Below, piece by piece: positions 982-15,944 of a DNA stretch of 44,513 nucleotides. The DNA is from a virus. Taxonomy: Duplodnaviria > Heunggongvirae > Uroviricota > Caudoviricetes. The notes under the pieces are model-generated. The model was not told where the DNA came from and searched no databases. It worked only from the letters and a program-made list of their open reading frames with translations. The position numbers and the translations under genes were made by a program. Position 1 is the stretch's first letter. Each line of letters opens with the position of its first letter. The stretch is from IMG/VR virus record IMGVR_UViG_2703718788_000013; one strand, written 5' to 3'.

Positions 982-1026
982 AAATTCAATCACTTACACA
1001 TCATTAAGTCAGTGACAAAAATCACA

Positions 1027-1057
1027 CTTGGAATTACTTGGAATATTTTCTTGGAAT
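1027..1057. repeat. Three direct repeats of CTTGGAAT at the 3' end of int; candidate integrase arm-type (P') binding sites
   Basis: CTTGGAAT at 1027, 1037 and 1050, between tRNA-Ser end and int stop codon (1034-1036). Confidence 0.4.
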
Positions 1058-2059
1058 ATTATCAGGTAACGGGACATCAAGTGTTGGTGAAACTTTAACC
1101 TTTCTGTCATAGATTAGCACTTGCCCTTCGGTTTTGTGACCAGAGAAAAGTTGCTTATCCCGGCTGCTTCCTTCATAGTCTGAAATTCCTTTCGCCTTCA
1201 GATCATGAAAGGTGAAGTCGGTTAAAATACCTGAAATTTTGCCTGCGTGATTTCTTGCTTCTACCCACATTTCGTTAAAACCTTTGTACATATATCGGTT
1301 GCCATATTGATTGCTGATTACATAGGCAGATGTTGGTAACTGTTTTGCTTTTTCGATCGCCGCCTGTAATCGTGGACTCCATGCTTTTATCTGTTTTTTC
1401 CCTGTTTTCCCTTGCTGGATAAAGATCCCGTCGTTTCCAATCTGCTCCCATTTCAGTGATAACACATCGGAAACCCTCGCTGCACACAGATAGGCAATTT
1501 CCATTGCGATAAAAACAGGAAGAGGTGCAACACTTAATACTGCCTGGTATTCTTTGTCGGTTACATATCGTTCGCGGTTTTTGGCCTTGAATTTACTTAC
1601 ACCTGCACATGGGTTACCCTTCACGTACCCTCGCTCATACCCCCAACTGTAAACGCGGGACATACTGCTTTTTTCATGGTTGGCTTGCGTTTTACTCTGT
1701 TCCCCTCTCTTGTCCATGTATCGACGGATGTGTTCTGGTTTTATGGAATCTGCCGGCACCTTACCGAATACGGCAAGCAACTTTTTTTGATGTTGCAGAT
1801 AATCTTTTTGTGTTCTTGGACTGAGGTCACTGTAATAGGCGCTGGCGAGGAATTTTTCCCACAAGCGACCGAATGTCATTGCGCGATCGCGATTATTTAC
1901 AGTTTCCTCATACTTTTTCCATAAAGCAGCTAAACCATCCTTGATGGCGGTTAGTGTGACAGATTCTCTGGATGTTGGTTTCCATACATAACTATATTTA
2001 TTTGGGTATACATTTGGAGGTAATTTTTCGTGTTCAGGATTTTTCCTTCGTCTTCCCAT
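1034..2059 (-). CDS. int: Phage integrase, tyrosine recombinase (lambda Int family)
   Basis: 341-aa ORF adjacent to tRNA att site and downstream of xis; start codon overlaps xis stop (TGATG). Confidence 0.9.
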   Translation of the reverse strand: MGRRRKNPEHEKLPPNVYPNKYSYVWKPTSRESVTLTAIKDGLAALWKKYEETVNNRDRAMTFGRLWEKFLASAYYSDLSPRTQKDYLQHQKKLLAVFGKVPADSIKPEHIRRYMDKRGEQSKTQANHEKSSMSRVYSWGYERGYVKGNPCAGVSKFKAKNRERYVTDKEYQAVLSVAPLPVFIAMEIAYLCAARVSDVLSLKWEQIGNDGIFIQQGKTGKKQIKAWSPRLQAAIEKAKQLPTSAYVISNQYGNRYMYKGFNEMWVEARNHAGKISGILTDFTFHDLKAKGISDYEGSSRDKQLFSGHKTEGQVLIYDRKVKVSPTLDVPLPDNIPRKYSK

Positions 2060-2268
2060 CAGATTGCACCAAAATTCGGCTCTACCTCGCGCGGTGGTAA
2101 AGTTTTATTGCAGGTAAATAGATCCCGGCTGACAATCGGTTTGCCACTACGATTGGTATAGAACGGAAGCCCGTTTTCCATTAACCATTTTCGCTGGTGG
2201 CTTGCATATTTGCAGCCCGTTAATATTAGCAATTCATCTTCGGTTAAAAATAAGCTGCTCATAGCCAT
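2059..2268 (-). CDS. xis: Excisionase-like small DNA-binding protein
   Basis: 69-aa ORF immediately upstream of int on the same strand with overlapping stop/start; composition typical of excisionase/DUF4224-like proteins. Confidence 0.65.
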   Translation of the reverse strand: MAMSSLFLTEDELLILTGCKYASHQRKWLMENGLPFYTNRSGKPIVSRDLFTCNKTLPPREVEPNFGAI

Positions 2269-2320
2269 ATCTCATAACCGCCGCTAACTATATACGGTTA
2301 GCGGCAATTAGGGTTGAACA

Positions 2321-4792
2321 TTAAAAATCAGCCTGACTCGGGATCAGTTTTTGCCAGATAGCTGAAACGTATTTTGCTTGGTAACGAGCGTCATCAAGTG
2401 CATTATGGCGCTCACCTTCGAATGGGATAGCAGTTCTGGCATCGAAGTCTATGGCTTTCCCCAGCTCAACGATTGTGCGTATATCGCGATCGTTGTAGTA
2501 ACGCCACGGGCAGGGGATCCCCTGCCGTTCGTATGAACGGCGCAAAATCGTGTTGTCGAAGTTTGCTCCATTTCCCCAGACCTGAACAAAAAATTCACCG
2601 GAGTTTTCGTCGATAAATTCCCGCAATTGTAACAGTGCATCATCTAACGGGATTTCATCGGTCATAATGGCAGATTGCGCTTCGCGTGATTGCTTAAGCC
2701 ACCATTTAATGGTGTCCCGATCAATGACTCCGCCAGCAGTTTCCAGATCGACAGTCTTACTAAATTCCGGTCCCATATCTCCGGTTTGCGGATCGAAAAA
2801 TATTGCACCTATTGAGATAATCGGGGCATCAGGATTTTTTCCCATGGTTTCAAGGTCGATCATCAGATGAATCCCCGCTCTGCTGGTGGATGTGAGATTA
2901 TGATGACCGTTCATCTTAATTAAGGGATCTGACGCCTCGCCAGTTTCACTATCGCTGGCATGATGCTGATTGCCGCCAGTGTTCTCCTTGTGCTGATGCG
3001 CAGTGCCTTCCATTTCCTCCGGAACATTTTCCTGAACTTCAGGCTGATTCTCTTCATCGAATATTTCCTGGTATGTTGCGTCGCCCATCACCGCACCACA
3101 ATCAGGGCAGCTACCGCCGCCGGTCTGACCGCAGGCGGTGCAGGCTTTTTCCGGCTCCTGTTGCGCTACTGGTTCAACCTGTTTCGTTTCTGGCTCGTTT
3201 TGTTGCGCATTTGGGCTGTTTTGTTCCGTTTTTTGGTCGTTCTGTTCCGATTCTTGCTGGTTCTGGTTTACAGAGTCGCGGGTTTCAATCCCCTTCACCC
3301 ATTTCGGATCATTCGGGTCGCTAATCCCTGCAACAAATTCTCCGCGAGAGGCAGCAAGCAACTTATCGGCGTCAGGCTGGCTGATATTGGCTGCCTGCAT
3401 AATTTTGTTTACTTCTTCAGCGGTAACTTTTACCGGCTCTGGTTGTGCGGTCGTGTCAGATGCACCAGTATTTTGTTGTGAACCTGAGTATGTACTGTTT
3501 TTGCGGGCAAAATATTCTTCTTTCGTGATTTCAGTAGCCCCTGCAGTCAGCGCCTTATTCAGACCAGAAAGTTTGTTTGCGCGACCATATTTTTCGCCAT
3601 CCTTATCTGTGAAGAGGAAGTAGAACGGCCCTTCACGCTCTACAGATGGTTCGACTTCCACTTTGCATTCGGTTTTTTCGTTGTCCGGAATTGCCGTTTC
3701 CACTGCATCAGTTTCTGGTACTGGCGACGAGAGAGTATCAGTTGCGCTCTGATTTGTTCCTTCATCTTCAAACACGCCCTTTGTAGTCAGATATTCAGTA
3801 ATGTATTTGTTCAGTGCCACAGGGGTTTTGTGAATGTCGATCGGACGTTCACGGACAAGGCCAAAAATAGTCTGGCGGTCGTAGCGAAGGGCATCAGGCT
3901 GTTTGCGCATTGATGCCGAGATACGCTTCCAGTCTTCGCGGTCGTTGTCGATAACTTCATTTTTTGCCCAGCGATGGATGCTGCCGTCAATGTTTCCGGC
4001 ATCAATGTCACCAGGCCACAGAGCGTAGGCCAGTTCATCATCCAGTGTTTTCCATGTCTGCTTGTATTCGCGACGAATGGTGGCAGTGGCTGGGGGGATT
4101 TTCGCTACTGAGTTTTCAGTGTTCTGCCGGTTGACTCTGGCGCGGGCAAGATCAACAACAGACGTGTATTTCCCGGTTTCTTTGCGTTCGGCTTCGCGAC
4201 GTTTTTTCCAGGTGCGTAATTCTGTCTGGATCTCAGGCCATTTTGCTCCCGGCTTACATTTATGTTTAACCCACCCGATGGCGAGCAGCTTGAGCTCTGA
4301 ATACATGACGTTAACTTCAGGCATTTTCATCAATGCCTCAACGATATGCCCGTCGAATGTTGCCATGTCCTCCTGCAGTAATTCCTGAGCACTAATCACC
4401 ATATCAACGGTGATGTTTTCACATGTACCGAACTTAACCAGGACCGCGTTCTGTACTTCAAGGGACAGCTTGTTAAAATTGACGTTCATCGGATCGGATT
4501 CTGGTTCGACCGGAATAAAGGAAGCGGATTCCTCATCCCAGCGGTTTTCCTGCATATATTCGGTATCCCAGGAGTCGATAGCAGGGCGGGGCATGCCGGG
4601 TTTATCCTCGCAGACAAGAAATTTATAAGCGCAGTCCTGAGCAGCCGGATATTGCTCCAGGAATTGCCAGGTAAATTTGGCACGGGCGCGGCGTTCGTCA
4701 CCGGCTTCAATGGCAGTGGCTACAGCAATTGCACCTTCTTCCTTTATTGCCTGTTCGTCCGGAATGGCGGCGCAAATAAAGACTTTACTCAT
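2321..4792 (-). CDS. Large exonuclease-family protein with C-terminal DnaQ-like DEDDh 3'-5' exonuclease domain (RecE position)
   Basis: 823-aa ORF, GAGG ribosome-binding site 10 nt upstream; C-terminal motifs IDLETMG (Exo I), WGNGANFD (Exo II), HNALDDA (Exo III); central acidic/Q-rich linker with CxxC...CxxC (CTACGQTGGGSCPDCG). Confidence 0.8.
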   Translation of the reverse strand: MSKVFICAAIPDEQAIKEEGAIAVATAIEAGDERRARAKFTWQFLEQYPAAQDCAYKFLVCEDKPGMPRPAIDSWDTEYMQENRWDEESASFIPVEPESDPMNVNFNKLSLEVQNAVLVKFGTCENITVDMVISAQELLQEDMATFDGHIVEALMKMPEVNVMYSELKLLAIGWVKHKCKPGAKWPEIQTELRTWKKRREAERKETGKYTSVVDLARARVNRQNTENSVAKIPPATATIRREYKQTWKTLDDELAYALWPGDIDAGNIDGSIHRWAKNEVIDNDREDWKRISASMRKQPDALRYDRQTIFGLVRERPIDIHKTPVALNKYITEYLTTKGVFEDEGTNQSATDTLSSPVPETDAVETAIPDNEKTECKVEVEPSVEREGPFYFLFTDKDGEKYGRANKLSGLNKALTAGATEITKEEYFARKNSTYSGSQQNTGASDTTAQPEPVKVTAEEVNKIMQAANISQPDADKLLAASRGEFVAGISDPNDPKWVKGIETRDSVNQNQQESEQNDQKTEQNSPNAQQNEPETKQVEPVAQQEPEKACTACGQTGGGSCPDCGAVMGDATYQEIFDEENQPEVQENVPEEMEGTAHQHKENTGGNQHHASDSETGEASDPLIKMNGHHNLTSTSRAGIHLMIDLETMGKNPDAPIISIGAIFFDPQTGDMGPEFSKTVDLETAGGVIDRDTIKWWLKQSREAQSAIMTDEIPLDDALLQLREFIDENSGEFFVQVWGNGANFDNTILRRSYERQGIPCPWRYYNDRDIRTIVELGKAIDFDARTAIPFEGERHNALDDARYQAKYVSAIWQKLIPSQADF

Positions 4793-4915
4793 TTTGTTTT
4801 AACCTCATGACATATTTAAGGATGAACAAATCCCTGCCATTGCTGGCATATAAGAATCAAATCTGATGTATTCATTAAGCTGAATGTCGTATTGTGGCAG
4901 TTATTTTATTACTGC

Positions 4916-5137
4916 TCACCATGACTCTGCTTTTACAGGTAAACCATCACGACCAAGGAAGACTTTTATCATGGTTTCCTTAATACAGTGTTGTGTGGAA
5001 AAATCACGAATATAGAGCCGTTGTTTTTTAATGTTGTTTACCGAAGCAATATATGTTCTTCCTTTATGAATAACATAATCACCGGGAGTCACGCACTGAC
5101 GAGGAATCTCATCAGTTCCGAAGTGATGAGCAATCAT
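4916..5137 (-). CDS. KilR-like small protein (putative cell-division inhibitor), 73 aa
   Basis: ORF-track 4916..5149; GGAG ribosome-binding site favours internal ATG at 5137 ([12 protein letters not shown]...); size and position next to exonuclease gene match Rac kilR; identity recalled from memory only. Confidence 0.5.
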
Positions 5138-5311
5138 AATTATCTCCATTTTTACAAATGAACTTTGTTGATGCGGTGCCTGGTGCCTCCAGGTGACGTT
5201 AACCAGTTAACAATTAACGCCGGATACAGAGAATCCACCCATAACACTGTTTTTGGTTTTAACTGTTCCGCGTGCGCTTAGCCGCATTCACCGCATCACA
5301 AAATTCACTTT

Positions 5312-5369
5312 AAAAAGGGCGGCAGAGCAGTCACGGAGTAAAACTGATACCGCCAAACGCCACCAGAAA
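5312..5369 (-). ncRNA. dicF: DicF-like small RNA (ftsZ translation inhibitor family) with intrinsic terminator
   Basis: Minus-strand sequence TTTTCTGGTGGCGTTTGGCGGTATCAGTTTTACTCCGTGACTGCTCTGCCGCCCTTTTT matches the remembered E. coli DicF sequence with one mismatch; GGCGG...CCGCC stem then U-run; no ORF in the region. Confidence 0.7.
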
Positions 5370-5705
5370 ATTGATAACAGAGGGCGTTGTAGCGGGGTTG
5401 TCACTTAAGCGTATGGTCAACCTGACAACCCGGTGTCCTCAACGGGGAAGGAATAACCCCGCCATACTTACCGCCGCGCCATTTCGCGGAGTGCCACAAC
5501 CGGAAGCGCACGGTCGAATTAAATTTAACGACACCGTACAGAGAGACCAATTTCGCCGTGCGCTTTCGCGTTATGCCTTGGCTTTTCAGGGATATATCCT
5601 TTCAGTAAACTGTCAGTACCGGATTCTTATCCGTGTCCGGCGCACGACCACACGTGACAGCGTGTTGGTCTCCATTTTTAACCCAGAACCTCAATGGAGG
5701 ATAAA

Positions 5706-5915
5706 ATGCCAAACAAAAAAAGAAATCCGCTTATTGAAAAACAGATTGAATGCCTGGTAAATCAACTCAGGCAATCAGGGTTATTAAAAACTCATTCAGA
5801 GTTGAGGCTCACAGAATCAGCATTCGACGATAAATTAAATAATGTCCTTTATAATGGCATTATTGATTTTAATCGTTCTGTTGGTCGCCGCGGCCCTGCT
5901 GGTGTTTCCTTATAA
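5706..5915 (+). CDS. Hypothetical 69-aa protein, encoded antisense to the early-left operon
   Basis: ATG at 5706 preceded by GGAGG 5 nt upstream; ORF-track 5694..5915. Confidence 0.45.
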   Translation: MPNKKRNPLIEKQIECLVNQLRQSGLLKTHSELRLTESAFDDKLNNVLYNGIIDFNRSVGRRGPAGVSL

Positions 5916-6554
5916 TTACCAGTCAATCCAGAGCGGACCGTGTTCAGCGTAAATATAACTGTACACATCCAGATTATATTTGTGGTCTGTTAAGAACAGG
6001 CCGCAAATACATGCCGAAGCTTCCAGGGCAGCGGCTCTGTTACTGAATAACCATGTAGCAACATTCCAGCGTTTTTCTGCATCCCAGTCTTTCTCAAGGC
6101 CTGATACCATGAAGAAACCGTTAGTGTTGCCATCAAATAATTCTGTTTCCAGATTTTTAAGCAATGCCTGATGGACTCTTGCCAGGTATTCCGCCGGAAT
6201 TTCGCCACGAATTCTGATGAGATTGTCATAAACAAACATGTTCCCCGCATATGGCGATTTTTCTTTCTTGTTTTTTAAACCAGCATCATGAGCAAACTGA
6301 TCAATTTCTTCTTCCGTTGGTTTCGTATTGATGTTTTGCGCTGTCGTTTCTGCAATTTTATTTGCCACACTCTCTGAGTCGTGTTTATTTACAGACGCAC
6401 AGAAATACAATCCGGTAAACGCATCGCGCACATTACGAGCCATATTATCAGTGTCTTTTTTCGTTACCGATTCCAATGCAAGTTCGTTCAGACGATGACG
6501 AAGTGTGTGTGCTGCAATCTCCTGGATTGAAGTAGGTAAATCTTTAAATTCCAT
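5916..6554 (-). CDS. Hypothetical early-left protein, 212 aa
   Basis: ORF-track 5916..6566; ATG at 6554 (MEFKDLPTSIQ) has GAGG 7 nt upstream and follows the stop of the upstream ORF. Confidence 0.6.
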   Translation of the reverse strand: MEFKDLPTSIQEIAAHTLRHRLNELALESVTKKDTDNMARNVRDAFTGLYFCASVNKHDSESVANKIAETTAQNINTKPTEEEIDQFAHDAGLKNKKEKSPYAGNMFVYDNLIRIRGEIPAEYLARVHQALLKNLETELFDGNTNGFFMVSGLEKDWDAEKRWNVATWLFSNRAAALEASACICGLFLTDHKYNLDVYSYIYAEHGPLWIDW

Positions 6555-6565
6555 CGTCAACCTCA

Positions 6566-6796
6566 TCAGTCAGAGTTTCTTGCTAACCAGCGATGCGCGC
6601 CAGCTTCGGTTTTAAACGTTTTACTTTTGGTATACGTCATCGCGGTGAACGTGCCGTCCTGGTTGGGAAACACGCCGTACACCAGAGATTCGTTGTTGCC
6701 AAGATCGATAGTATCCATGCTGACCTCATTTCCCCTTAACGCCGGGGTAGCGGAACAAAAACCTGCTGCATAGTTAAAGTTGAACCCTGCCGTCAT
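6566..6796 (-). CDS. Hypothetical early-left protein, 76 aa (first gene after putative pL)
   Basis: ORF-track 6566..6796 minus; tightly coupled to downstream ORF. Confidence 0.5.
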   Translation of the reverse strand: MTAGFNFNYAAGFCSATPALRGNEVSMDTIDLGNNESLVYGVFPNQDGTFTAMTYTKSKTFKTEAGAHRWLARNSD

Positions 6797-6899
6797 GTTC
6801 TTACGCCTCGGGCTGGCTACTTAACCCCTGACCACTGCCTGGTAACTCGAAGTATTGCCCTGCGTGCTGTGGGGCGGGGTGGGTTGGTATGTTGTCAAG

Positions 6900-6913
6900 G
6901 TAACAAGAGTTAC
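6900..6913. promoter_or_regulatory. OL-like operator, GTAAC-N4-GTTAC palindrome
   Basis: GTAACAAGAGTTAC between repressor gene end and first early-left ORF; same motif as the two sites in the cI-cro intergenic region. Confidence 0.5.
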
Positions 6914-6955
6914 CGGAAAAGTCAATGAGATGTTGCAAAAGGTACATACAGGAGC

Positions 6956-6981
6956 GCAAAAAACCCGCAATGAATGCGGGT
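6956..6981 (-). terminator. Intrinsic terminator downstream of repressor gene
   Basis: Minus-strand AACCCGCA / TGCGGGTT 8-bp stem followed by TTTTTT, just after repressor stop. Confidence 0.6.
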
Positions 6982-6987
6982 TCTGAC

Positions 6988-7662
6988 TCAGTCTAAATAT
7001 TGATGTATTTGTGAAACTTTACCTTTAATAGTGTAACCACCATTCAGTTCAATGGGTTTGTAAAGCGGATTCAGTGACAGCAGATAGATGTTTGGTCCGT
7101 CAATCGCAACTTTTTTTAGTGTTACGTTCGGCGTTCCTTCCAATTGGATTAAGATTATTTTTCCCACCAGTTCTCTAATGTTACTTGAGCATGGCGTGAT
7201 CAGCACGGTAGATCCGTCGGGGATGGTTGGGAGGCCGTTAGAGTTCGTCATCGCATCTCCCTCAACGCGCAATAAAAAAGAGTTTTCAGCGGTTTTTGTC
7301 ATGACATCAACCCAATTCTTAATACCAGGAATCTCGGTTACTGGGCAACTCATATCCCAATAACCAGCCTGTTCCCACGTTAAAACGGGCAACCGGGCGA
7401 TGTTGTCACTAATGTAAAGGTACTGATTCAGACGCAGATCGTCGGTTTTATCGTGACCATCCTTTCCATAAAGAATCCATTCAGGAGATTTGGAAAGCAA
7501 TTTTGACAGCAGATGCAAATTCTCACCGTCAGGTTTTGAAGAGCCATTTTCCCATTTTGTTACGGATACGCGAGATATGCCGATTGCTTTCGCAACCTGC
7601 TGTTGAGTTAGTCCAACGTCTTTTCGACGATTCCGAATACGTTCGCTGATAGTGTTTTTCAT
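6988..7662 (-). CDS. cI: CI-like repressor (HTH_XRE N-terminal domain plus S24 LexA-like C-terminal domain)
   Basis: ORF-track 6988..7761; C-terminal region aligns by eye with lambda CI (VEGDAMT versus VEGNSMT, TLKKV versus TFKKL, QAG linker); start placed at ATG 7662 to leave a 91-bp operator region before cro (ATG 7704 is an alternative). Confidence 0.8.
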   Translation of the reverse strand: MKNTISERIRNRRKDVGLTQQQVAKAIGISRVSVTKWENGSSKPDGENLHLLSKLLSKSPEWILYGKDGHDKTDDLRLNQYLYISDNIARLPVLTWEQAGYWDMSCPVTEIPGIKNWVDVMTKTAENSFLLRVEGDAMTNSNGLPTIPDGSTVLITPCSSNIRELVGKIILIQLEGTPNVTLKKVAIDGPNIYLLSLNPLYKPIELNGGYTIKGKVSQIHQYLD

Positions 7663-7724
7663 GTAACCAATGTTACCACCAAGTGATGTTACTGTGGTTG
7701 ACATCTTTATGTAACTATTGTTAC
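7663..7724. promoter_or_regulatory. OR-like operator region with GTAAC-N4-GTTAC palindromes between cI and cro
   Basis: GTAACCAATGTTAC at 7663-7676 and GTAACTATTGTTAC at 7711-7724, plus a GTTAC half-site near 7688; divergent cI/cro starts flank it. Confidence 0.55.
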
Positions 7725-7753
7725 CCTTTTGTTCGAAATAACAGGAGAGTTTT

Positions 7754-7969
7754 ATGTTCAAAGATGATGTTCTGCGCTATTTCAAAAAAAAGCGACTAGT
7801 AGCTGAGGCTCTTGGAATTTCACATGTGGCTGTTGTGCGGTGGAAAGCAGTTATTCCCAAACTTCGCGCAATGGAGCTGGATGAAATTACTAACGGTGAA
7901 TTGAAATACAATCCAGAACTTTACAAGAAGCAGGATAGCACCTCGAACGAAGGAAAGAATGATTCATGA
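7754..7969 (+). CDS. cro: Cro-like small HTH regulator
   Basis: 71-aa ORF divergent from cI, AGGAG ribosome-binding site at 7743-7749; HTH-like segment RLVAEALGISHVAVVRWK. Confidence 0.7.
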   Translation: MFKDDVLRYFKKKRLVAEALGISHVAVVRWKAVIPKLRAMELDEITNGELKYNPELYKKQDSTSNEGKNDS

Positions 7970-8391
7970 AAATCAAGCATGAACACATCCGCATGGCGAT
8001 GAATGCCTGGGCGCATCCGGACGGCGAAAAAATACCGGCTGCGAAAATTACCAAAGCGTATTTCGAACTGGGAATGACGTTCCCGGAACTGTATGACGAC
8101 AGCCATCCGGAAGCTCTGGCTCGCAATACTCAGAAAATTTTCCGCTGGGTAGAGAAAGACACCCCTGATGCAGTTGAAAAAATTCAGGCGTTGTTACCAG
8201 CGATCGAAAAGGCAATGCCACCTTTGCTGGTGGCCAGAATGCGCAGCCACAGTTCAGCTTATTTTCGGGAGCTGGTGGAAACGCGGGAGCGATTGGTGAG
8301 AGACGCTGATGATTTTGTCGCAGTGGCAATCGCCGGTTTCAATCAGATGAACCGTGGTGGCCCGGCAGGAAATGCTGTGGCAGTACATTGA
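7966..8391 (+). CDS. YdaT-like protein (CII-position regulator)
   Basis: 141-aa ORF translationally coupled to cro (ATGA overlap); N-terminus MKIKHEHIRMAMNAW resembles Rac YdaT as remembered. Confidence 0.5.
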   Translation: MKIKHEHIRMAMNAWAHPDGEKIPAAKITKAYFELGMTFPELYDDSHPEALARNTQKIFRWVEKDTPDAVEKIQALLPAIEKAMPPLLVARMRSHSSAYFRELVETRERLVRDADDFVAVAIAGFNQMNRGGPAGNAVAVH

Positions 8392-8462
8392 CTGACAATA
8401 GCCATATCGAATCGCTTCCGGCAACTCGTGAGTAAAAAGATTCGGTATCAGAAGAGGTGAGT

Positions 8463-9533
8463 ATGGCTAACGCCTGGCTCAGATTATGGCATGACATGCC
8501 GAATGACCCTAAGTGGCGAACAATTGCCAGGGTGTCAGGGCAGCCAATTGCAACAGTGATGGCAGTGTATATCCACCTCCTGGTGAGCGCGTCACGAAAT
8601 GTCACGCGAGGTCACATTGATGTCACGACAGAAGATTTGGCAAGTGCGCTCGACGTGACAGAAGAGGTAATTGATTCAATTTTGCAGACGATGCAGGGGC
8701 GGGTACTTGATGGTGATTTAATCACTGGATGGGAAAAACGCCAGGTGCTGAAAGAGGACAACGGCAATATTTCGCAAACCGCAAAATCTCCTGCAGAGCG
8801 CAAGAGGGCGCAGCGAGAGAGGGAAAGAAAGCGGGAACAAAATGGCGATTGTCACGGCGCGTCACGAAATGTCACGCACATGTCACGACGAGTCACGACA
8901 GATAAAGATACAGATAAAGATACAGATAAAGAAGATCAAAACACTATGGTCCATGGCGTAAAAAACGCCACGAACCAGGCAGGGGATGTTCAGTCCGTCA
9001 ATCCTGGTCAGCCAGCAGGCACGACACCGGAAGCCGATTCAGCGTATGCGCTGAAAGCCGATTCGGGCGCTGTGCAGCAGGTGATGACCGCAAGGCCGGA
9101 GCAATCACTCCAACTGCAGCAGCCTGAAGCCGATTCCGCCATTCAGCGGGAGGCCGAGCGGGTAGCCCCGGAAAACACCGGGCAGCCTGTGGGACGAGTG
9201 GATTATCCAGAAGTGTTCGAACAGGTCTGGCGGGAATACCCGTTGCGTGCCGGGGCAAACCCGAAGAAATCCGCTTTCAGTGCCTGGAAGGCCAGATTAC
9301 GCGAGGGGGTGCCACCAGAGGCCATGCTAGATGGTGTGAGGCGTTACGCAAGATACCTGGCGGCTACCGGGAAAACGGGAACGGAATTTGTTCAGCGAGC
9401 GACGACGTTTTTTGGACCGGACCGGAATTTTGAAAACCCCTGGTTGCTCCCGGTAAGCGGTACGAACAACCAGCGTTGCGTGAATCACATTTCTGAACCA
9501 GATACCGAAATTCCACCGGGCTTCAGGGGGTAA
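8463..9533 (+). CDS. Replication initiation protein (O-like), with origin repeats inside the coding sequence
   Basis: 356 aa from ATG 8463 with GAAGAGG upstream; positioned after the cro/cII-like genes; contains two iteron clusters and an AT-rich repeat. Confidence 0.65.
   Translation: MANAWLRLWHDMPNDPKWRTIARVSGQPIATVMAVYIHLLVSASRNVTRGHIDVTTEDLASALDVTEEVIDSILQTMQGRVLDGDLITGWEKRQVLKEDNGNISQTAKSPAERKRAQRERERKREQNGDCHGASRNVTHMSRRVTTDKDTDKDTDKEDQNTMVHGVKNATNQAGDVQSVNPGQPAGTTPEADSAYALKADSGAVQQVMTARPEQSLQLQQPEADSAIQREAERVAPENTGQPVGRVDYPEVFEQVWREYPLRAGANPKKSAFSAWKARLREGVPPEAMLDGVRRYARYLAATGKTGTEFVQRATTFFGPDRNFENPWLLPVSGTNNQRCVNHISEPDTEIPPGFRG
8591..8934. repeat. Putative replication origin: two clusters of GTCACG iterons plus three tandem 11-bp GATAAAGATAC repeats
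   Basis: GTCAC(G/A) at 8591, 8601, 8611, 8623 and at 8851, 8861, 8871, 8882, 8892 with about 10-bp periodicity; tandem repeat at 8901-8934. Confidence 0.6.
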
Positions 9534-9573
9534 GTGTTTATTTCAGGTCACGAGGTAATTTTCAGGAGGACTT

Positions 9574-9996
9574 GTGGCAAAAGTTTTTACACAAGAAGAG
9601 CGAGAAAAAATTAAAGGGCAGGTTGTTGAACTCGTACGCCAGAGTGGGCGTGAGACGTTACGGCAACTGGAAGTCAAGACAGGTGCGACAAGATATCTGA
9701 TGAGCGTTCTCGCAAGAGAGCTGGTTGCCAGCGGCGATGTATACAACTCTGGTTACGGGTTATTCCCGTCTGAACAGGCGCGTAAGGACTGGCAAAATGC
9801 CCGTAAAAAGCTCTCAAGGGCAAAGCTGAAGAAACCATCTGCGGTTGATCCGGACCTTATCTGGTCATTACCTGATGGAGAAATACGTCGTTACGACAGG
9901 CGTCATAATATAATTTGTACTGAGTGTCGTAAAAGCGAAGTTATGCAGCGCATATTGTCGTTTTATCAGGGGGATGTTCGGTATTTATTGAAGTGA
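9574..9996 (+). CDS. Hypothetical 140-aa protein
   Basis: GTG start at 9574 with AGGAGG 5 nt upstream; occupies the position where lambda carries the helicase loader. Confidence 0.55.
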   Translation: MAKVFTQEEREKIKGQVVELVRQSGRETLRQLEVKTGATRYLMSVLARELVASGDVYNSGYGLFPSEQARKDWQNARKKLSRAKLKKPSAVDPDLIWSLPDGEIRRYDRRHNIICTECRKSEVMQRILSFYQGDVRYLLK

Positions 9997-10238
9997 CGAG
10001 ATTAAAATGCATTAGTTAAGATGTGAATTGACATTTTGTGGCACAGGATAGAGCTAGCGTGGTTGTCCGCTTTGTGCCAAAAGCGGACGTTAAGCTTACC
10101 AACTCATATTTTAAGGTCATAGGTGCGTATAAACGAAGTACCACGCTTAGGAGTAGTGAATTTACAGACTTACAAAATCATTTATTTCAGGCCAATTTAT
10201 GTAATGGCATAATCAGGTTGGTGAAAGAGAGGGCTGAA

Positions 10239-10823
10239 ATGGATAAAAAATCTAAAAATCAGATAGTAGATAGCGATATTGCACGTTTATTGCTTAAACA
10301 TAGGAAGGCTCGCAATTTGACTGTAACAGAGCTTGCTCAACGATCGGGCGTCAGTCAGGCCATGATTAGTAAGATTGAACGAGGCATCTCCAGCCCTAGT
10401 GCAACTATCCTTAGCCGCCTGGCCAACGCCATGAATGTAACGCTATCTAAACTCTTTGCAGAGCTTGAGCAACATCAGAATTCTCTGGTTCGTTTTGCTC
10501 ATCAGCAACAGCACTGGACGGATGAGCAATCAGGCATCACTCGTTGGTCTTTGTCTCCTGCGGGGGCATGCCCGGAACTGATCAAAGTTGAAATTCCTGC
10601 AATGGGTGAGTTGACGATACCCGCCTCCGCAAATGAGCATCTTTCCGGGCAAACGCTTTGGGTGATGAGTGGTAGCCTTGATTTTCGAGTCAAAAATCAG
10701 ACCCATCATTTACGTGCCGGTGACTGTCTTGCCCTTACCTTTGCAAGCGAGTACCAAATGAGCAATCCAGATAGTGAGCAGAGCTGTTCTTACATCGTGG
10801 CTTTTAGCCAAAAAAATCAATGA
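10239..10823 (+). CDS. Transcriptional regulator, HTH_XRE N-terminus plus cupin-like C-terminal domain
   Basis: ORF-track 10038..10823; ATG at 10239 (MDKKSKNQ); HTH segment LTVTELAQRSGVSQAMISKIERG. Confidence 0.7.
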   Translation: MDKKSKNQIVDSDIARLLLKHRKARNLTVTELAQRSGVSQAMISKIERGISSPSATILSRLANAMNVTLSKLFAELEQHQNSLVRFAHQQQHWTDEQSGITRWSLSPAGACPELIKVEIPAMGELTIPASANEHLSGQTLWVMSGSLDFRVKNQTHHLRAGDCLALTFASEYQMSNPDSEQSCSYIVAFSQKNQ

Positions 10824-10843
10824 TATCTTCTCTGCCACATTGG

Positions 10844-11287
10844 TTACATGTTATTGGCCATTCTCAGATGCAACAAGGGGTATGGCCTTCCCTGATTATC
10901 CAGATCGGAACGCCCTGATACCTGAAACCCCATATGCTGATAAAACCCTACAGCCTGCTGGTTTTGTTCATTTACATCAACGCTTAGCTCTGGATGCAGC
11001 GCCAGTGCATGAGAGATCAAACGTTTTCCGACGCCAAGTCCGCGAGCAGAGCCTGCTACAAAAAGTGCCTCCAGATGGCCCTTATGCAAAAACATAAATC
11101 CTAGCGGTTGGTCATCCTGATTTGTTGCAACCCATACAGGAGTTTCTGAGAAAAAGCCGACAACTTCTTTTTCGATTTCTTGTCGGTCATGACCTGTAAG
11201 AAAGTCGTGGGTAGCATCCACTGAACTCTTCCAGATTTGTATGATCTCATCTGCTTCAGATGGTCGTGACATTCTGATATCTAACAT
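10844..11287 (-). CDS. GNAT-family N-acetyltransferase
   Basis: 147-aa ORF with acetyl-CoA binding-like segment (ARGLGVGKRLI); convergent with the HTH-cupin gene. Confidence 0.7.
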   Translation of the reverse strand: MLDIRMSRPSEADEIIQIWKSSVDATHDFLTGHDRQEIEKEVVGFFSETPVWVATNQDDQPLGFMFLHKGHLEALFVAGSARGLGVGKRLISHALALHPELSVDVNEQNQQAVGFYQHMGFQVSGRSDLDNQGRPYPLLHLRMANNM

Positions 11288-11685
11288 TTTTCAACCTTAG
11301 AGTGAACTTTATTTTGTGTAATAACGAACGAAAAGAACTTACTTTAATTTACTATAGTAAAATGATATTCACAATAGTATTTGTGATTTCTATGCCTTAT
11401 CAACGTGATGAGAAGTGCTAAGTTAGTCTGATCCTCTTTATCATCATCAACGACAATGTTCCTGAGCTTTATCACATTGAATGTCCGCTTCTCGCTCAAA
11501 GCGGACTAGAAGGTTAGCTTGCGTCGGACTTGGCGTATTTAAAGAAGTGCTGGTGGTGACTGGTTGTCGTGTTCCATTTCTACAGAACAAAATCACAGAA
11601 ACTATACCCAATAGTTGTATTGAATCACTGACGAGACAGCCTCATATTTATCAGGACTGGTGTACGTCCAATACAGGAGGTTGTG

Positions 11686-11775
11686 GTGCTGGTTCTCAAA
11701 TGTGCGCTGGCTATTGCTGCTGTAATGGCAATTTATTGCCTTGCTGTTGTTCTTATGGATCGCCTTTCTGACTGA
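11686..11775 (+). CDS. Candidate small hydrophobic membrane peptide (about 29 aa)
   Basis: AGGAGG at 11675-11680 then GTG; product VLVLKCALAIAAVMAIYCLAVVLMDRLSD; overlaps in another frame the Cys-rich 96-aa ORF-track call 11481..11771. Confidence 0.3.
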   Translation: MLVLKCALAIAAVMAIYCLAVVLMDRLSD

Positions 11776-11986
11776 TTTCATATTGGCGAGGTAACGGTAG
11801 TTAAGTAGAATGGCTGTGGGTGCTTGAGGCTATCTGCCTCGGGCATGAACACCAACGGCAGATAGAGAAAAGCCCCAGTTAACATTACGCGTCCTGCAAG
11901 ACGCTTAACATTAATCTGAGGCCAATTTCATGCTAGACACATGTAGGTTAGCCTCTTACGTGCCGAAAGGCAAGGAGAAGCAGGCT

Positions 11987-12142
11987 ATGAAGCAGCAAAA
12001 GGCGATGTTAATCGCCCTGATCGTCATCTGTTTAACCGTCATAGTGACGGCACTGGTAACGAGGAAAGACCTCTGCGAGGTACGAATCCGAACCGACCAG
12101 ACGGAGGTCGCTGTCTTCACAGCTTACGAACCTGAGGAGTAA
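11987..12142 (+). CDS. hok: Hok/Gef-family type I toxin
   Basis: 51-aa product MKQQKAMLIALIVICLTVIVTALVTRKDLCEVRIRTDQTEVAVFTAYEPEE, near-identical to remembered HokD/RelF; AAGGAGAAG ribosome-binding site; 8-bp hairpin at 12151-12170. Confidence 0.85.
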   Translation: MKQQKAMLIALIVICLTVIVTALVTRKDLCEVRIRTDQTEVAVFTAYEPEE

Positions 12143-12309
12143 GAGACCAGGCGAGGGAGAAATCCCTCGCCACCTTTGATGTGTCAGGCATCCTCAACGC
12201 ACCCGCACTTAACCCGTTTCGGCGGGTTTTGTTTTTTCCTGGCATTCTGGTTTACAATTCGCACGCCAGCCTGAACAACTGGCACCTGCTGCGCCAGCAG
12301 AGACAGCCG

Positions 12310-12588
12310 ATGGCGCACGATACCAAATTACACTATTCTGATGATTCTGCCGTCTTTGCCAGCAGGTGTGGACGGCGTTTTCACGCATTCAAATCGGACT
12401 GGTTCCAGCATCCTCCATGCACTGAAGAGCAGGCTGAATGGATAATTCAGTGTTACCGCAGGCGCGGATACGAGGTTAAGAAAGCCCTCAGCCTCGATTA
12501 TCGTCACTGGATAATCTCCGTCAGGCTTCCTTACTCCGAACGCCCACCGCGTCCGTCCCGCACATTCCAGCAACGAATCTGGAGGTAA
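12310..12588 (+). CDS. Rem-like hypothetical protein
   Basis: In-frame ATG at 12310 (MAHDTKLHYSDD) within ORF-track 12181..12588; gene order hok - this ORF - DUF968 mirrors Qin hokD-rem-ydfU. Confidence 0.45.
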   Translation: MAHDTKLHYSDDSAVFASRCGRRFHAFKSDWFQHPPCTEEQAEWIIQCYRRRGYEVKKALSLDYRHWIISVRLPYSERPPRPSRTFQQRIWR

Positions 12589-12589
12589 C

Positions 12590-13645
12590 GTGCGGGTATT
12601 ACTTCGACCTGTTCTGGTACCGGAACTCGGGCTGGTGGTCCTTAAGCCAGGTCGTGAATCCATGCAGGTATTTCACAATCCTCGAGTGCTGGTGGAGCCG
12701 GAACCGAAAAGCATGCGTAATCTGCCGTCCGGGGTCGTTCCTGCCGTTCGCCAGCCGCTGGTGGAAGACAAAACATTGCTGCCGTTTTTCAGTAACGCAC
12801 GGGTGATTCGTGCTGCTGGTGGTGCTGGTGCATTGTCTGACTGGCTGTTGCGCCATATTAAATCCTGCCAGTGGCCACACGGCGATTATCATCACAGCGA
12901 AACCGTCATTCACCGTTATGGTACCGGCGCAATGGTGTTGTGCTGGCACTGCGACAACCAGCTGCGTGACCAGACATCCGAATCACTCGAGCAACTTGCT
13001 CATCAAAACCTGTCAGCATGGATGATTGACGCCATCGGTCACGCAATAAGCGGTACGCAGGAGCGTGAATTATCTCTGGCTGAATTATCCTGGTGGGCGG
13101 TCCGCAATCAGGTGGCGGACGCGCTACCGGAAGCGGTATTACGTCGTTCGCTGGGGTTGCGTGCGGAAAAAATCCGCTCAATGTACCGTGAAAGCGACAT
13201 CGTACCGGGAGAGCAGACCGCCACCAGCATACTGAAGCAGCGCACAAAAAATCTTGCGCCGCTGCCTCACGCCCACCAGCAAAACCCGCCACAGGAAAAG
13301 ACGGTGGTCAGCATTGCCGTTGATCCGGAGTCACCGGCTCAGTATCTCCAGCGCCAGAAACCACAACGGGAAGAGATGCCTGTATACACGCGCTGGGTAA
13401 AAACGCAGAAATGCATGACGTGCGGTAATCAGGCAGATGATCCGCATCACATCATTGGTCATGGACTGGGAGGGATGGGAACAAAGGCTGATGATTTGTT
13501 TGTTATTCCGCTGTGCCGCAAATGTCATAACGAACTGCACGCCGGGGTAAAAGATTTTGAAGAAAAACACGGCAGCCAGCTGTTGTTGCTGATTCGTTTT
13601 TTAATGCACGCGAGAAATTCGGGTGTCTTGAAGTGGAAAGCATGA
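12590..13645 (+). CDS. DUF968/YdfU-like protein with C-terminal HNH-like motif
   Basis: GTG start with GGAGG 4 nt upstream; C-terminus CMTCGNQADDPHHIIGH...CRKCHNELH. Confidence 0.7.
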   Translation: MRVLLRPVLVPELGLVVLKPGRESMQVFHNPRVLVEPEPKSMRNLPSGVVPAVRQPLVEDKTLLPFFSNARVIRAAGGAGALSDWLLRHIKSCQWPHGDYHHSETVIHRYGTGAMVLCWHCDNQLRDQTSESLEQLAHQNLSAWMIDAIGHAISGTQERELSLAELSWWAVRNQVADALPEAVLRRSLGLRAEKIRSMYRESDIVPGEQTATSILKQRTKNLAPLPHAHQQNPPQEKTVVSIAVDPESPAQYLQRQKPQREEMPVYTRWVKTQKCMTCGNQADDPHHIIGHGLGGMGTKADDLFVIPLCRKCHNELHAGVKDFEEKHGSQLLLLIRFLMHARNSGVLKWKA

Positions 13646-14011
13646 ATGACTGAACGCATAGAATTTGTTTTGCCTTACCCGCCGACGGTGAATACTTACT
13701 GGCGACGTCGTGGCAACACATATTTTGTATCAAAAGTCGGTGAGCGTTATCGCCGTGATGTGGCGCTAATTGTTCGCCAGCAGCGGCTGAAATTAAACCT
13801 GTCCGGAAGGCTGGCGATAAAGATTATTGCAGAGCCACCGGATAAGCGCCGTCGTGACCTGGACAATATCCTGAAAGCACCACTGGATGCGCTGACGCAT
13901 GCCGGACTTCTCATAGACGACGAGCAGTTTGATGAAATCAATATTGTGCGCGGTCAGCTCGTTCCTGGTGGGCGGCTGGGGATAAAAATCACAGAACTGG
14001 AGTGCGCATGA
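13646..14011 (+). CDS. rusA: RusA-family Holliday junction resolvase
   Basis: 121 aa; conserved RRRDLDN region and size match RusA. Confidence 0.85.
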   Translation: MTERIEFVLPYPPTVNTYWRRRGNTYFVSKVGERYRRDVALIVRQQRLKLNLSGRLAIKIIAEPPDKRRRDLDNILKAPLDALTHAGLLIDDEQFDEINIVRGQLVPGGRLGIKITELECA

Positions 14012-14697
14012 ATAGCCAGTATTTACAGTTTGTGCGTGAGCAGCTCATTATCGCCACCGCTGATTTGAGTGGGGCAACAAAAGGTCAGCTTGAAGCCTGG
14101 CAGGAGAATGCCATGTTCGATACAGGGCGTTACAGGCGTAAAAAAATCCGGTACCGGGATGAGGTGACTGGAAAAATGATAACGCGGGATAATCCACCAA
14201 TCCCGGGAAAACAATCACTGGCGAAGGGGACGTCAATTCCTCTGGTCAGTCCGGTTGAGTTTTCGACATCATCGTGGCGGCGGGCTGTTCTGTCTCTTGA
14301 AGAACATCATAAAGCCTGGTTGTTGTGGTGTTACAGCGGGAATATTTGTTGGGAATATCAGATCGCGATAACACAGTGGGCGTGGAATGAATTTAATACT
14401 CAATCCGGTACCAGAAAAATTGCAGGGAAAACGCAGGAACGCCTGAAAAAATTAATCTGGCTGGCGGCGCAGGCAGTAAAAGCAGAACTTTTGGGTGGGG
14501 AAGGTTATGAATACCAGGAGCTGGCATTACTGGCGGGAGTGACAACTAAAAACTGGTCCAAAACATTTACTCGTCACTGGGTTGCAATGAAACACATTTT
14601 TTACCGACTGGATAGTGAGGCTTTATTGTTTGTAATGAGAACACGTTCAAAACAAAAGGCGGCATTTTCAAAGCAAAGTGTTGCAAAAGTAGATTGA
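14008..14697 (+). CDS. Late-gene antiterminator Q-like protein
   Basis: 229 aa; overlaps rusA stop (ATGA); immediately upstream of a promoter-plus-terminator unit of the PR'/tR' type. Confidence 0.7.
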   Translation: MNSQYLQFVREQLIIATADLSGATKGQLEAWQENAMFDTGRYRRKKIRYRDEVTGKMITRDNPPIPGKQSLAKGTSIPLVSPVEFSTSSWRRAVLSLEEHHKAWLLWCYSGNICWEYQIAITQWAWNEFNTQSGTRKIAGKTQERLKKLIWLAAQAVKAELLGGEGYEYQELALLAGVTTKNWSKTFTRHWVAMKHIFYRLDSEALLFVMRTRSKQKAAFSKQSVAKVD

Positions 14698-14709
14698 AAG
14701 GCATATATT
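14681..14709 (+). promoter_or_regulatory. PR'-like late promoter
   Basis: -35 TTGCAA at 14681-14686, 17-bp spacer, -10 TATATT at 14704-14709, at the 3' end of Q. Confidence 0.5.
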
Positions 14710-14762
14710 TCATGCAAATCTGATATTTTGCCGATTTTGTACGTGATGGCAAAAGCAAACAA

Positions 14763-14788
14763 AACCCGCCCACAAGCGGGTTTTTTTG
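14763..14788 (+). terminator. tR'-like intrinsic terminator
   Basis: CCCGC CCACAA GCGGG hairpin followed by TTTTTTT, about 55 nt downstream of the PR'-like -10. Confidence 0.75.
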
Positions 14789-14869
14789 TGCCACTTATCT
14801 CGGATAGACATGGTGAATGCGCTGGTGGAGGAAGTAAGGGTGATTTTTAATCAGGTGATTTTTGAATGC

Positions 14870-14898
14870 TTGCAACATTGATTTCGTAACGTTATTAT
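14870..14898 (+). promoter_or_regulatory. Sigma70-type promoter for the tRNA array
   Basis: -35 TTGCAA at 14870-14875, 17-bp spacer, -10 TATTAT at 14893-14898, ending 9 nt before tRNA 1. Confidence 0.5.
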
Positions 14899-14907
14899 CC
14901 TGCACCC

Positions 14908-14983
14908 GGCCCTTTAGCTCAGTGGTGAGAGCGAGCGACTCATAATCGCCAGGTCGCTGGTTCAAATCCAGCAAGGGCCACCA
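14908..14983 (+). tRNA. tRNA with CAT anticodon, ileX-like (tRNA-Ile2 or Met)
   Basis: 76-nt cloverleaf, acceptor GGCCCTT/AAGGGCC, anticodon loop CTCATAA, CCA end; resembles remembered E. coli ileX. Confidence 0.8.
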
Positions 14984-14984
14984 A

Positions 14985-15061
14985 CCGCCACTAGCTCATC
15001 AGGAAAGAGCGTCAACCCTTTAAGTTGAGTGTGCGAGGTTCGAGTCCCCGGTGGCGGTCCA
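14985..15061 (+). tRNA. tRNA-like gene, apparent anticodon TTT (Lys-like), non-canonical features
   Basis: Acceptor CCGCCAC/GTGGCGG, anticodon stem TCAAC/GTTGA, loop CCTTTAA (C at position 33), T-loop TTCGAGT, CCA end; A-C mismatch in T-stem. Confidence 0.55.
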
Positions 15062-15063
15062 GT

Positions 15064-15139
<76 letters not shown>

Positions 15140-15142
15140 TAT

Positions 15143-15217
<75 letters not shown>

Positions 15218-15380
15218 GTATTTATCTGCATATTTCCTTTTGAGTCCCGTTTTGTTAGAGGTATTGGGCTGTTGACGGGGCTGATATCCACTCTCCACCT
15301 TTCAGGGAGATAGGATTTAAGGAGCCAACCGGTTAGAGTCTGCTTTGTTCCTAACCAGTTGGTTATGTTATTTGAGATGG

Positions 15381-15944
15381 TTAGTTTTTATTCGCCGTCC
15401 ATTTACCACAAATTGGTCTGGAGAAGATTGCCAGAATGGCAATAAAGGATATTTCAATTGAAACAGACCAGCATATATGTCCAATCAGTTCGCTCCAGAA
15501 TTCATAGCCGTTTAGATTCCATAGCCACCCTCTTTCATGGCCGGGAAGATACGCGGGAAATCTGAAGCCCAGCGCGGGTATTAAAATACCATGCATGACT
15601 AATGTAATAAGAATTCCATATACAGCCCCATACCACATGCGGACTCGTGGAATAAAAACAGACAGGTATATGTATACAAAGGCAAAAATGAAACTAAAAA
15701 GCCAATGATAGAGCATAACAGCTCCGGGAATTGTTACTCCCTGGTAAATGTAATCCAGCGAGTGTGAATTTATTCCCAGAAAACCCAACCAGGCGTCGAT
15801 ATTCATTGCTGGTGGAGAAATTTCTCCGGCCATTCTTGGGGGCATGTTAGCTTCAGTTCCTGATTTCACCAGAGAGCTGATCGCGCCACCGACCAGTGTT
15901 GCCCAAAGTATGATTTTTAGATTTACGCTATTCCATTTACACAT
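15381..15944 (-). CDS. YagU-like inner membrane protein (DUF1440 family), moron
   Basis: ORF-track 15381..16223; ATG at 15944 (MCKWNSVNLKIILWATLVGG) has GAGG 7 nt upstream; several hydrophobic segments; ELIGHICWSVSIEI resembles the YagU motif; antisense to late transcription. Confidence 0.65.
   Translation of the reverse strand: MCKWNSVNLKIILWATLVGGAISSLVKSGTEANMPPRMAGEISPPAMNIDAWLGFLGINSHSLDYIYQGVTIPGAVMLYHWLFSFIFAFVYIYLSVFIPRVRMWYGAVYGILITLVMHGILIPALGFRFPAYLPGHERGWLWNLNGYEFWSELIGHICWSVSIEISFIAILAIFSRPICGKWTANKN

Follow-up and report, generated by a model that had tools for sequence, protein, structure and literature searches.

What purpose can a 3'-5' exonuclease have in lambdoid phages that depend on RecBCD and Chi, if such enzymes normally antagonise recombination? 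And what is the role of a RecE-like scaffold that is shuffled among at least five C-terminal effectors? Both puzzles are raised by a gene for a protein of 823 amino acids (aa) in the virus record IMGVR_UViG_2703718788_000013, a stretch of 44,513 nucleotides (nt) which was analysed as a whole and is called the window here. The window matches the chromosome of Escherichia coli strain 377323_2f (NZ_CP039404.1) at 100% identity and covers a lambdoid prophage, inserted at tRNA-Ser (serU) beside mtfA. The locus is an intact YdfE-type gene of a Qin/Tritos-like lambdoid prophage, and with moderate confidence its product is regarded here as a putative accessory 3'-end processor beside host RecBCD and RecA. 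The gene and its nuclease domain are located as follows:

2321-4792, minus strand: whole open reading frame (ORF) of the 823-aa YdfE-type exonuclease gene, with ATG start and a single terminal stop
2354-2869, minus strand: DEDDh 3'-5' exonuclease domain (PF16473, DexA/Rv2179c family), aa 642-813, Pfam E=7.6e-67

The protein is 100% identical to WP_062860013.1, annotated as 'exonuclease' in NZ_CP039404.1, and phrog_2082 was matched over positions 1-823 of 823, a PHROGs family of exactly that length. Its C-terminal part matched PF16473 (Rv2179c-like 3'-5' exoribonuclease) with 224.9 bits against a cut-off of 27, over profile positions 2-177 of 177. A preliminary description, made from the letters of the DNA, had located DnaQ-type motifs in the last 200 aa, and DLE (646-648), WGNGANFD (739-746) and HNALDDA (796-802) indeed lie inside this match. 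Six family representatives all have the catalytic residues D646, E648, D746, H796 and D801. Of these, D646 and E648 (DxE of Exo I) and D746 (Asp of Exo II) correspond to D7, E9 and D119 of T4 DexA, and the Hx4D residues of Exo III are present as H796 and D801. The closest solved structure is 8KEL/8KEN, an 'exodeoxyribonuclease' of 227 aa (E=1.3e-6), identified as DexA of phage T4 (Kang et al. 2025, PMC12153337). For the DEDDh domain, a ratio of nonsynonymous to synonymous substitution rates (dN/dS) of 0.15-0.16 was calculated against the copies of mEp460_ev081 and Tritos. No 5'-3' double-stranded DNA (dsDNA) exonuclease of the lambda Exo/RecE type was found; the DEDDh domain is the sole nuclease domain, so that the nuclease is of the DnaQ/DEDDh type, as had been described, and not of the lambda Exo/RecE type.

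For the N-terminal part an AlphaFold 2 (AF2) model was built from 54 diverse relatives, with a mean predicted local distance difference test score (pLDDT) of 74.8. It comprises four confident domains joined by disordered linkers (aa 1-100, 101-205, 241-340 and 388-432), less confident helices at aa 458-500 and a knuckle at aa 548-570. In the order of the protein, the segments are:

4493-4792, minus strand: N-terminal alpha/beta domain (part A of the head), aa 1-100, from the AF2 model; assumed to be the Pfam YdfE_N region
4178-4492, minus strand: helical domain (part B of the head), aa 101-205, AF2 pLDDT 94-98; assumed to be the Pfam YdfE_C region
3773-4072, minus strand: central helical domain, aa 241-340, AF2 pLDDT 93-97
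3497-3631, minus strand: small domain of beta-hairpin and helix (module D), aa 388-432, AF2 pLDDT 94-96
3293-3385, minus strand: conserved motif DKLLAASRGEFVAGISDPNDPKW, aa 470-500, the best-conserved segment of the family
3152-3292, minus strand: disordered linker rich in Q, N and E, aa 501-547, from its composition, AF2 pLDDT <50
3083-3151, minus strand: four-cysteine zinc knuckle (C551, C554, C562, C565), aa 548-570, AF2 pLDDT about 70-76
2870-3082, minus strand: acidic disordered linker, aa 571-641, in which the homology to RecE stops at aa 625

The N-terminal 600 aa had been described as unassigned, which could not be maintained. In BLASTP against K-12 RecE, aa 262-625 correspond to RecE 278-591 (E=2e-59), and the alignment stops short of the RecE nuclease domain. 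Identity to RecE reaches 78-86% in two BLAST modules, aa 455-510 with the motif DKLLAASRGEFVxGISDPNDPKW and aa 540-600 with the knuckle. Over its first 256 aa, the protein has 86% identity to the pseudogene product YdfE of the K-12 Qin prophage. Furthermore, PF27430 (YdfE_N) and PF27432 (YdfE_C) are precomputed on the identical database protein P0001, a cluster representative; both families are newer than the local copy of Pfam, and the assignments were taken as precomputed.

The central helical domain is found in every family representative (occupancy about 1.0 over the 54) and is common with RecE aa 278-351. Module D was found in relatives with a YdfE-type head, and both this module and the A+B head have a dN/dS of 0.05-0.11. 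The segment at aa 470-500 has 86% identity to RecE and still 70-89% in relatives with only 25-40% identity in the other domains. An acidic, Q/E-rich tract with a CxxC...CxxC element and a zinc-ribbon character had also been noticed. This was verified with CTAC (551-554) and CPDC (562-565) within the Q/N/E-rich tract of aa 501-640, the densest 50-residue block of which contains 17 Q/N and 11 D/E. The four-cysteine knuckle is kept in K-12 RecE (ACNACGQTGGDNCPDCG).

RecE of the Rac prophage and the window protein thus have the central helical domain, the GISDPNDPKW motif, the four-cysteine knuckle and the acidic linkers in common, and both genes lie early-left, near xis-int. They differ at both ends. 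RecE has a head of the PF06630 type, a C-terminal PD-(D/E)XK 5'-3' dsDNA exonuclease (about aa 600-866) and an adjacent recT, whereas in the window protein the head is of the YdfE type and the exonuclease a 3'-5' enzyme of the DEDDh type, and recT is absent. At the level of sequence, the DEDDh domain is shown to occupy the place where RecE has its PD-(D/E)XK 5'-3' nuclease.

K-12 YdfE (b1577) is known as a pseudogene of the cryptic Qin prophage in the same operon context, DUF1391/ydfA - DicF - dicB remnant - gene - xis - int. There, ydfE is cut by IS2 after codon 256, so that central domain, zinc knuckle and exonuclease are all missing, in contrast to the complete window gene of 823 aa. Because the first 256 aa of the window protein match the IS2-cut K-12 product at 86%, the window gene is ydfE in its intact form.

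At least 80% of the exonuclease gene was detected in 3531 of 5426 complete E. coli genomes (about 65%), often in multiple copies. The gene also occurs in isolated temperate coliphages, namely mEp460_ev081, Tritos, HannyBb, PhiR42_1, Evi and the PPompW phages. Compared with the copies of mEp460_ev081 and Tritos, dN/dS is 0.20-0.27 for the whole gene, 0.05-0.18 for the folded domains and 0.33-0.53 for the linkers. These ratios indicate that the folded domains are under purifying selection and that the linkers are more relaxed.

A pseudogene or relic was considered as well and rejected in view of the intact ORF, the dN/dS of 0.2 and the occurrence of the gene in isolated phages.

The distribution of the scaffold was examined by an exhaustive HMMER search with aa 1-640. 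Of 1.84 billion representatives, only 255 clusters reached E<=1e-3; the scaffold family is narrow. Modules were mapped on 54 long members. Two types of heads were distinguished, the YdfE type of the window protein and the RecE type (PF06630), and at least five types of C-terminal effectors: DEDDh (7 members), RecE/DUF3799-type PD-(D/E)XK (13), C3 (18), C4 (8) and C5 (1). The other seven members have no effector, or another one. Each head type is paired with four of the five recognised effector types. In the relative P0129, aa 1-360 are 100% identical to K-12 RecE and the DEDDh domain is 98% identical to that of the window protein. Within the window gene, 450 bp (nt 1425-1874 of the gene) have 75.7% nucleotide identity to recE, and they include an exact recE match of 37 nt, which starts at gene nt 1693, in the coding region of C565, directly behind the fourth cysteine. 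Judged from these identities, nt 1425-1874 is a plausible crossover region.

The effector C3 (aa 485-778 in P0131) is a conserved domain of about 280 aa that replaces the nuclease in the relatives P0131, P0135, P0136, P0150, P0167 and others. It had no match in Pfam and no sequence-profile match in the PDB, and nothing was found in the comparison with lambda Redbeta by hhalign. Against the core of human Rad52, the C3 profile gave E=0.025 in hhalign over 115 collinear columns, with a Rad52 sequence that was entered by hand. KKSLTDAxKKALSxLGF of C3 is aligned there with RKEAVTDGLKRALRSFG of this hand-entered Rad52 sequence. The comparison is suggestive only; the C3 proteins may be fusions of the RecE/YdfE scaffold with an annealing protein that has escaped recognition. 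The C3-type gene of P0131 (locus L007, 5650-7986) is situated directly behind a Gam-like gene, and the more distant DEDDh-type gene of P0247 stands alone between the repressor region and xis-int.

Two further observations concern this family. Proteins with the C3 domain are labelled 'exonuclease' in PHROGs. In P0193 (703 aa), K-12 RecE residues 1 to about 530 are joined straight to the C-terminal part of RecT, which is either a natural deletion or an engineered strain.

The lack of a partner for the exonuclease was investigated for the whole prophage. The features concerned are:

2059-2268, minus strand: excisionase (DUF4224), which follows 52 bp after the exonuclease stop
5916-6554, minus strand: 212-aa orphan protein 'Ybl81', tested as candidate for an annealing protein with negative result
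6566-6796, minus strand: small DUF1391 protein (YdfA/YdaF-like), the 76-aa ORF of the preliminary description, Pfam PF07151, E=1.2e-28
13646-14011, plus strand: RusA Holliday-junction resolvase, phrog_34, E=2.4e-56, also named by the Prokaryotic Genome Annotation Pipeline (PGAP)

In the record with 100% identity, PGAP annotates no RecT, Redbeta or Erf over the whole prophage, and no annealing protein was found in PHROG scans of the early-left and early-right genes. With PGAP, Pfam, PHROGs, NCBIfam and PADLOC together, neither an annealing protein (Redbeta/RecT, Erf, Rad52/Sak, Sak4 or Gp2.5) nor a single-strand binding protein (SSB) nor an anti-RecBCD protein was detected in the prophage. Structures were also modelled for aa 1-640 and for the neighbouring 212-aa protein (the latter with a moderate pLDDT of 66), and fold searches with both revealed no annealing fold. 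Hence, the statement that no RecT, Red-beta or Erf-like gene lies nearby was borne out, and it can be extended from the vicinity to the whole prophage. The search for annealing folds in the N-terminus and in the 212-aa ORF, which had been proposed as a check, gave negative results, and the 76-aa ORF was assigned to DUF1391. Because only 52 bp lie between the exonuclease stop and xis, there is no room for a recT-like gene. By these searches, the gene is shown not to be half of an exonuclease/annealase pair. Besides the exonuclease, RusA is the sole recognisable recombination protein of the prophage.

A pronounced excess of Chi sites was observed in the window.

2193-16612, 12 on the plus and 2 on the minus strand: all 14 Chi sites (GCTGGTGG), counted against expectation

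The 14 sites on both strands compare with 1.68 expected, and 0 of 100 shuffles reached 14. The exonuclease gene contains one of these sites (2882-2889), and xis another (2193-2200). All of them are located in the early region with 46-48% G+C, and none was found in 20-44.5 kb despite the 56-57% G+C of the structural half. The part without Chi thus comprises 25 kb of structural and cargo DNA, and all sites are within about 17 kb of the cos/terminase side. Since cos is near 19.3 kb, together with the terminase as placed by PGAP, the plus strand corresponds to the Chi orientation which RecBCD reads from the right end of virion DNA.

Six of the Chi sites are clustered in the DUF968/HNH gene (12590-13645), four on the plus strand at 12631-12822, within 200 bp, and two on the minus strand at 13221-13280. 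Part of this cluster appears to be conserved, because the K-12 homologue ydfU (L004, 256-1305) also holds four Chi sites, two per strand.

Abundant and correctly oriented Chi sites at the right end were described for lambdoid phages without recombination module and anti-RecBCD protein (Zheng et al. 2025, Genome Res, PMC12315714). The authors propose that Chi-rich lambdoid phages use RecBCD for recombination-dependent growth; RecBCD-aided growth was shown for phage LLS only, which is Chi-rich and has no recombination module (PMC12315714). In their Table 1, the 'Tritos' type is defined by a nuclease and by the lack of annealing protein, SSB and anti-RecBCD protein; it includes four phages, with Chi counts on top and bottom strand from 21/6 down to 7/2 (PMC12315714). 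The authors also note nuclease genes of the DnaQ type in the vicinity of int, as well as 'RecE-2' proteins that have no nuclease domain, and isolated genes of these kinds were not counted as members of recombination modules (PMC12315714). The window prophage corresponds to the Tritos type (class B) in gene content, Chi orientation and position of the sites at the right end. Its exonuclease gene has 89.3% nucleotide identity over the full length to TRITO_27 of Tritos, which is found at the same site, between xis and ydfD/dicB/DicF. In contrast to Tritos, the integrase and the attachment site (serU) are different, kil is present in place of ydfD/dicB, and cargo genes for effectors of the type III secretion system (T3SS) are added.

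In general, the observation of an exonuclease without annealing partner is confirmed, and the gene is already known: it is annotated and ubiquitous, and its partnerless arrangement was published in 2025. The novelty implied in the preliminary description therefore falls, as the Tritos type of Zheng et al. (2025) already covers this arrangement and Tritos has the same gene. The location, described as that of exo/bet in lambdoid phages, agrees only roughly. The gene abuts xis-int, and this position is set apart from the canonical mid-operon site of recombination modules (Zheng et al. 2025, PMC12315714). What is added here is the equivalence with ydfE, the anatomy of RecE scaffold and effector exchange, the negative tests for annealing proteins and the Chi context.

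For the function as accessory 3'-end processor the following course is proposed. The exonuclease would be made from the leftward early operon after induction. As was suggested for phages of this class, the phage would rely on host RecBCD, Chi and RecA for the recombination supporting lytic growth, and its own RusA would resolve the junctions. The RecE-like scaffold might bring the enzyme to the DNA-end or host-protein target that is used by RecE, where the DEDDh domain would trim 3' single-stranded ends. As a possible effect, 3'-tailed ends would be blunted so that RecBCD can load. In the host, ExoI, ExoX and SbcCD make 3'-tailed ends acceptable to RecBCD. ExoI and ExoX, which belong to the same DnaQ catalytic superfamily with presumably the same polarity, are from general knowledge the analogues for such blunting of 3' ends, but they are chromosomal housekeeping genes and have no RecE-like scaffold.

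Several points weigh against this function. As Zheng et al. remark, homologous recombination is as a rule inhibited by 3'-5' exonucleases of the DnaQ type, since these take away the 3' tails needed by RecA (PMC12315714). A stimulatory role in recombination is therefore not the default expectation. The founder of PF16473, Rv2179c, was described as an exoribonuclease; substrate (DNA or RNA), polarity and timing of the window enzyme are deduced from family membership only. The N-terminus of RecE enhances linear-linear recombination (PMC11611040), and targeting by the RecE-like scaffold is a putative role even in RecE. A crude consensus scan revealed no sigma-70-like promoter directly upstream of the gene, which speaks for expression with the operon, but a scan of this kind is also compatible with expression in the lysogen. 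Finally, no functional study of this protein, biochemical or genetic, was found in the searchable literature. Tritos and the other isolated phages with the gene make both the purpose of the nuclease and the role of the scaffold accessible to experiments.

A broader version, which we consider rather unlikely, would regard the YdfE/RecE scaffold as a general platform that brings exchangeable DNA-end effectors, among them the 5'-3' PD-(D/E)XK exonuclease, the 3'-5' DEDDh exonuclease and a Rad52-like annealing domain, to a common host or DNA-end target; its DEDDh version would ready phage ends for RecBCD in Chi-rich phages that lack their own recombination module. If true, this would give the N-terminal 600 aa of RecE a testable function.

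Other explanations of the gene have to be weighed against the accessory 3'-end processor. That the protein simply is RecE (exodeoxyribonuclease VIII) is suggested by the records of Tritos, PhiR42_1 and other phages, which say exonuclease VIII, and by the RecE-like central region. However, the NCBIfam RecE equivalog NF007259 gave 266.2 bits against a cut-off of 1269 and matched aa 218-626 only, the Pfam scan revealed neither PD-(D/E)XK (DUF3799) nor PF06630, the alignment ends at RecE residue 591 ahead of the nuclease domain, and recT is absent. The identity with RecE is refuted by these results and can be set aside with near certainty. As the equivalog matches the central part only, and far below its cut-off, the 'exonuclease VIII' labels in the phage records are wrong; where databases call this gene 'exodeoxyribonuclease VIII', the name should be replaced by 3'-5' (DEDDh) exonuclease. 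It is also very improbable that the gene is half of a two-component recombinase with an unrecognised annealing partner, either the 212-aa orphan or a part of the N-terminal scaffold. Such a partner could be sought among the 212-aa protein and several small ORFs of the operon without known function, and the scaffold of relatives is fused to the domain collinear with the Rad52 core (the hhalign result of E=0.025 with the hand-entered Rad52 sequence). Yet the 212-aa gene is absent from the operons of Tritos and mEp460_ev081 although the exonuclease is present there, a 3'-5' exonuclease would destroy the 3' tail needed by an annealing protein, and a genome so rich in Chi suggests that the phage depends on the pathway of the host.

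Two explanations place the enzyme outside recombination. It could be a nuclease for prophage defence or superinfection exclusion, comparable to EcD ('HREX'), which would degrade the 5-hydroxymethylcytosine (5hmC) DNA of T-even phages and spare the host. EcD, a stand-alone DexA homologue of E. coli, degrades T4 DNA and protects cells; compared with DexA, the tetramer-forming D90 is replaced by Ala, and W152 and D169, which recognise 5hmC, are kept (Kang et al. 2025, PMC12153337). The window protein belongs to the same Pfam family, T4 DexA is the closest among the solved structures, and the gene is found in prophages of about 65% of the complete E. coli genomes. Nevertheless, this function is unlikely. 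EcD, like T4 DexA (227 aa), is a stand-alone protein, beginning with the catalytic motif MIDTET according to the cloning primers, and has no 640-aa RecE-like scaffold, whereas the window domain is the tail of an 823-aa scaffold protein. At the two positions compared via alignment with DexA, the residues which distinguish EcD do not appear to be reproduced: at the position of D90 the Asp is kept as D718 (MAFFT and HMMER alignments), and the position of W152 is Y766, which varies in relatives (Y, C, W). Moreover, the gene is part of a repressor-controlled leftward operon behind kil and DicF with no match to a promoter of its own in the crude scan, the scaffold of relatives carries recombination effectors, and PADLOC gave only a generic Cas-associated DEDDh match for the exonuclease (E=1.5e-5). 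A scan of the genome collection with the reverse primer of EcD gave one match, an unrelated Acetatifactor contig. Alternatively, the enzyme could serve takeover of the host or anti-defence in the lytic cycle, attacking host DNA for nucleotides, RNA or nucleotide-based immune molecules, without any link to recombination. T4 DexA scavenges host DNA (PMC12153337). The name of Rv2179c as exoribonuclease, the presence of the domain in 698 phage records, which span many unrelated lytic and temperate phages, and the location in an early operon agree with such a use. We regard it as doubtful all the same, because no direct evidence speaks for it and because the scaffold common to RecE and the probable annealing fusion, with P0131 behind a Gam-like gene, indicates a context of DNA ends and recombination. 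To our knowledge, temperate lambdoid phages do not degrade the host chromosome, which was also counted against this explanation.

The surroundings of the gene correspond to the left end of a lambdoid prophage with the order int, xis (DUF4224), 823-aa gene, kil, dicB remnant and DicF small RNA (sRNA), followed past DicF by a 73-aa ORF on the plus strand, the 212-aa orphan and the DUF1391 protein. The features of this region that were not given above are:

1034-2059, minus strand: tyrosine integrase, beside tRNA-Ser (serU) and mtfA
4916-5149, minus strand: Kil-like FtsZ inhibitor, phrog_294, E=2.6e-34, named kil by PGAP
5317-5368, minus strand: DicF sRNA, Rfam RF00039 with 76.4 bits (gathering score 48)

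The kil gene is located directly upstream of the exonuclease gene in the same leftward operon, and DicF marks this operon as the early-left operon of the Qin/dicB type. The next block consists of a cI-like repressor, cro, a CII/YdaT-like protein, a replication initiator and a Ren-like protein. The remainder of the early-right region comprises hok/sok, the DUF968/HNH protein, RusA, Q, four tRNAs and lysis genes, and the late part contains the terminase followed by lambda-like head and tail genes. T3SS effectors in the window are NleG, a HECT-type E3 ligase and NleC; an EspF-repeat protein and EspJ are encoded just outside the window end.

With DicF and Kil, two different systems for the inhibition of FtsZ are intact in the early-left operon. 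A third would have been made by dicB, if whole, which is truncated according to PGAP. The integrase was flagged as frameshifted by PGAP (1009-2059, minus strand), its longest ORF having 341 aa (1034-2059). Because of this flag, the prophage may have lost the ability to excise. The 212-aa 'Ybl81' has only 151 homologues, nearly all in Escherichia, and no known domain. Its gene is missing from the same operon in the phages Tritos and mEp460_ev081, and it behaves like a moron gene.

In the early-right region, a type I toxin-antitoxin pair of the hok/sok type is encoded at 11818-12142 on the plus strand (sok RNA RF01794, 115 bits; hokD by PGAP). The four tRNAs (Ile, Lys, Thr and Gly) were identified downstream of the Q antiterminator at 14908-15217 on the plus strand by PGAP of the identical record. 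The T3SS effector cargo is situated at the tail-fibre end of the prophage (window 40001-44260) and has a G+C content of 35-38%. The prophage is one of the effector-carrying elements similar to CP-933U/Sp14.

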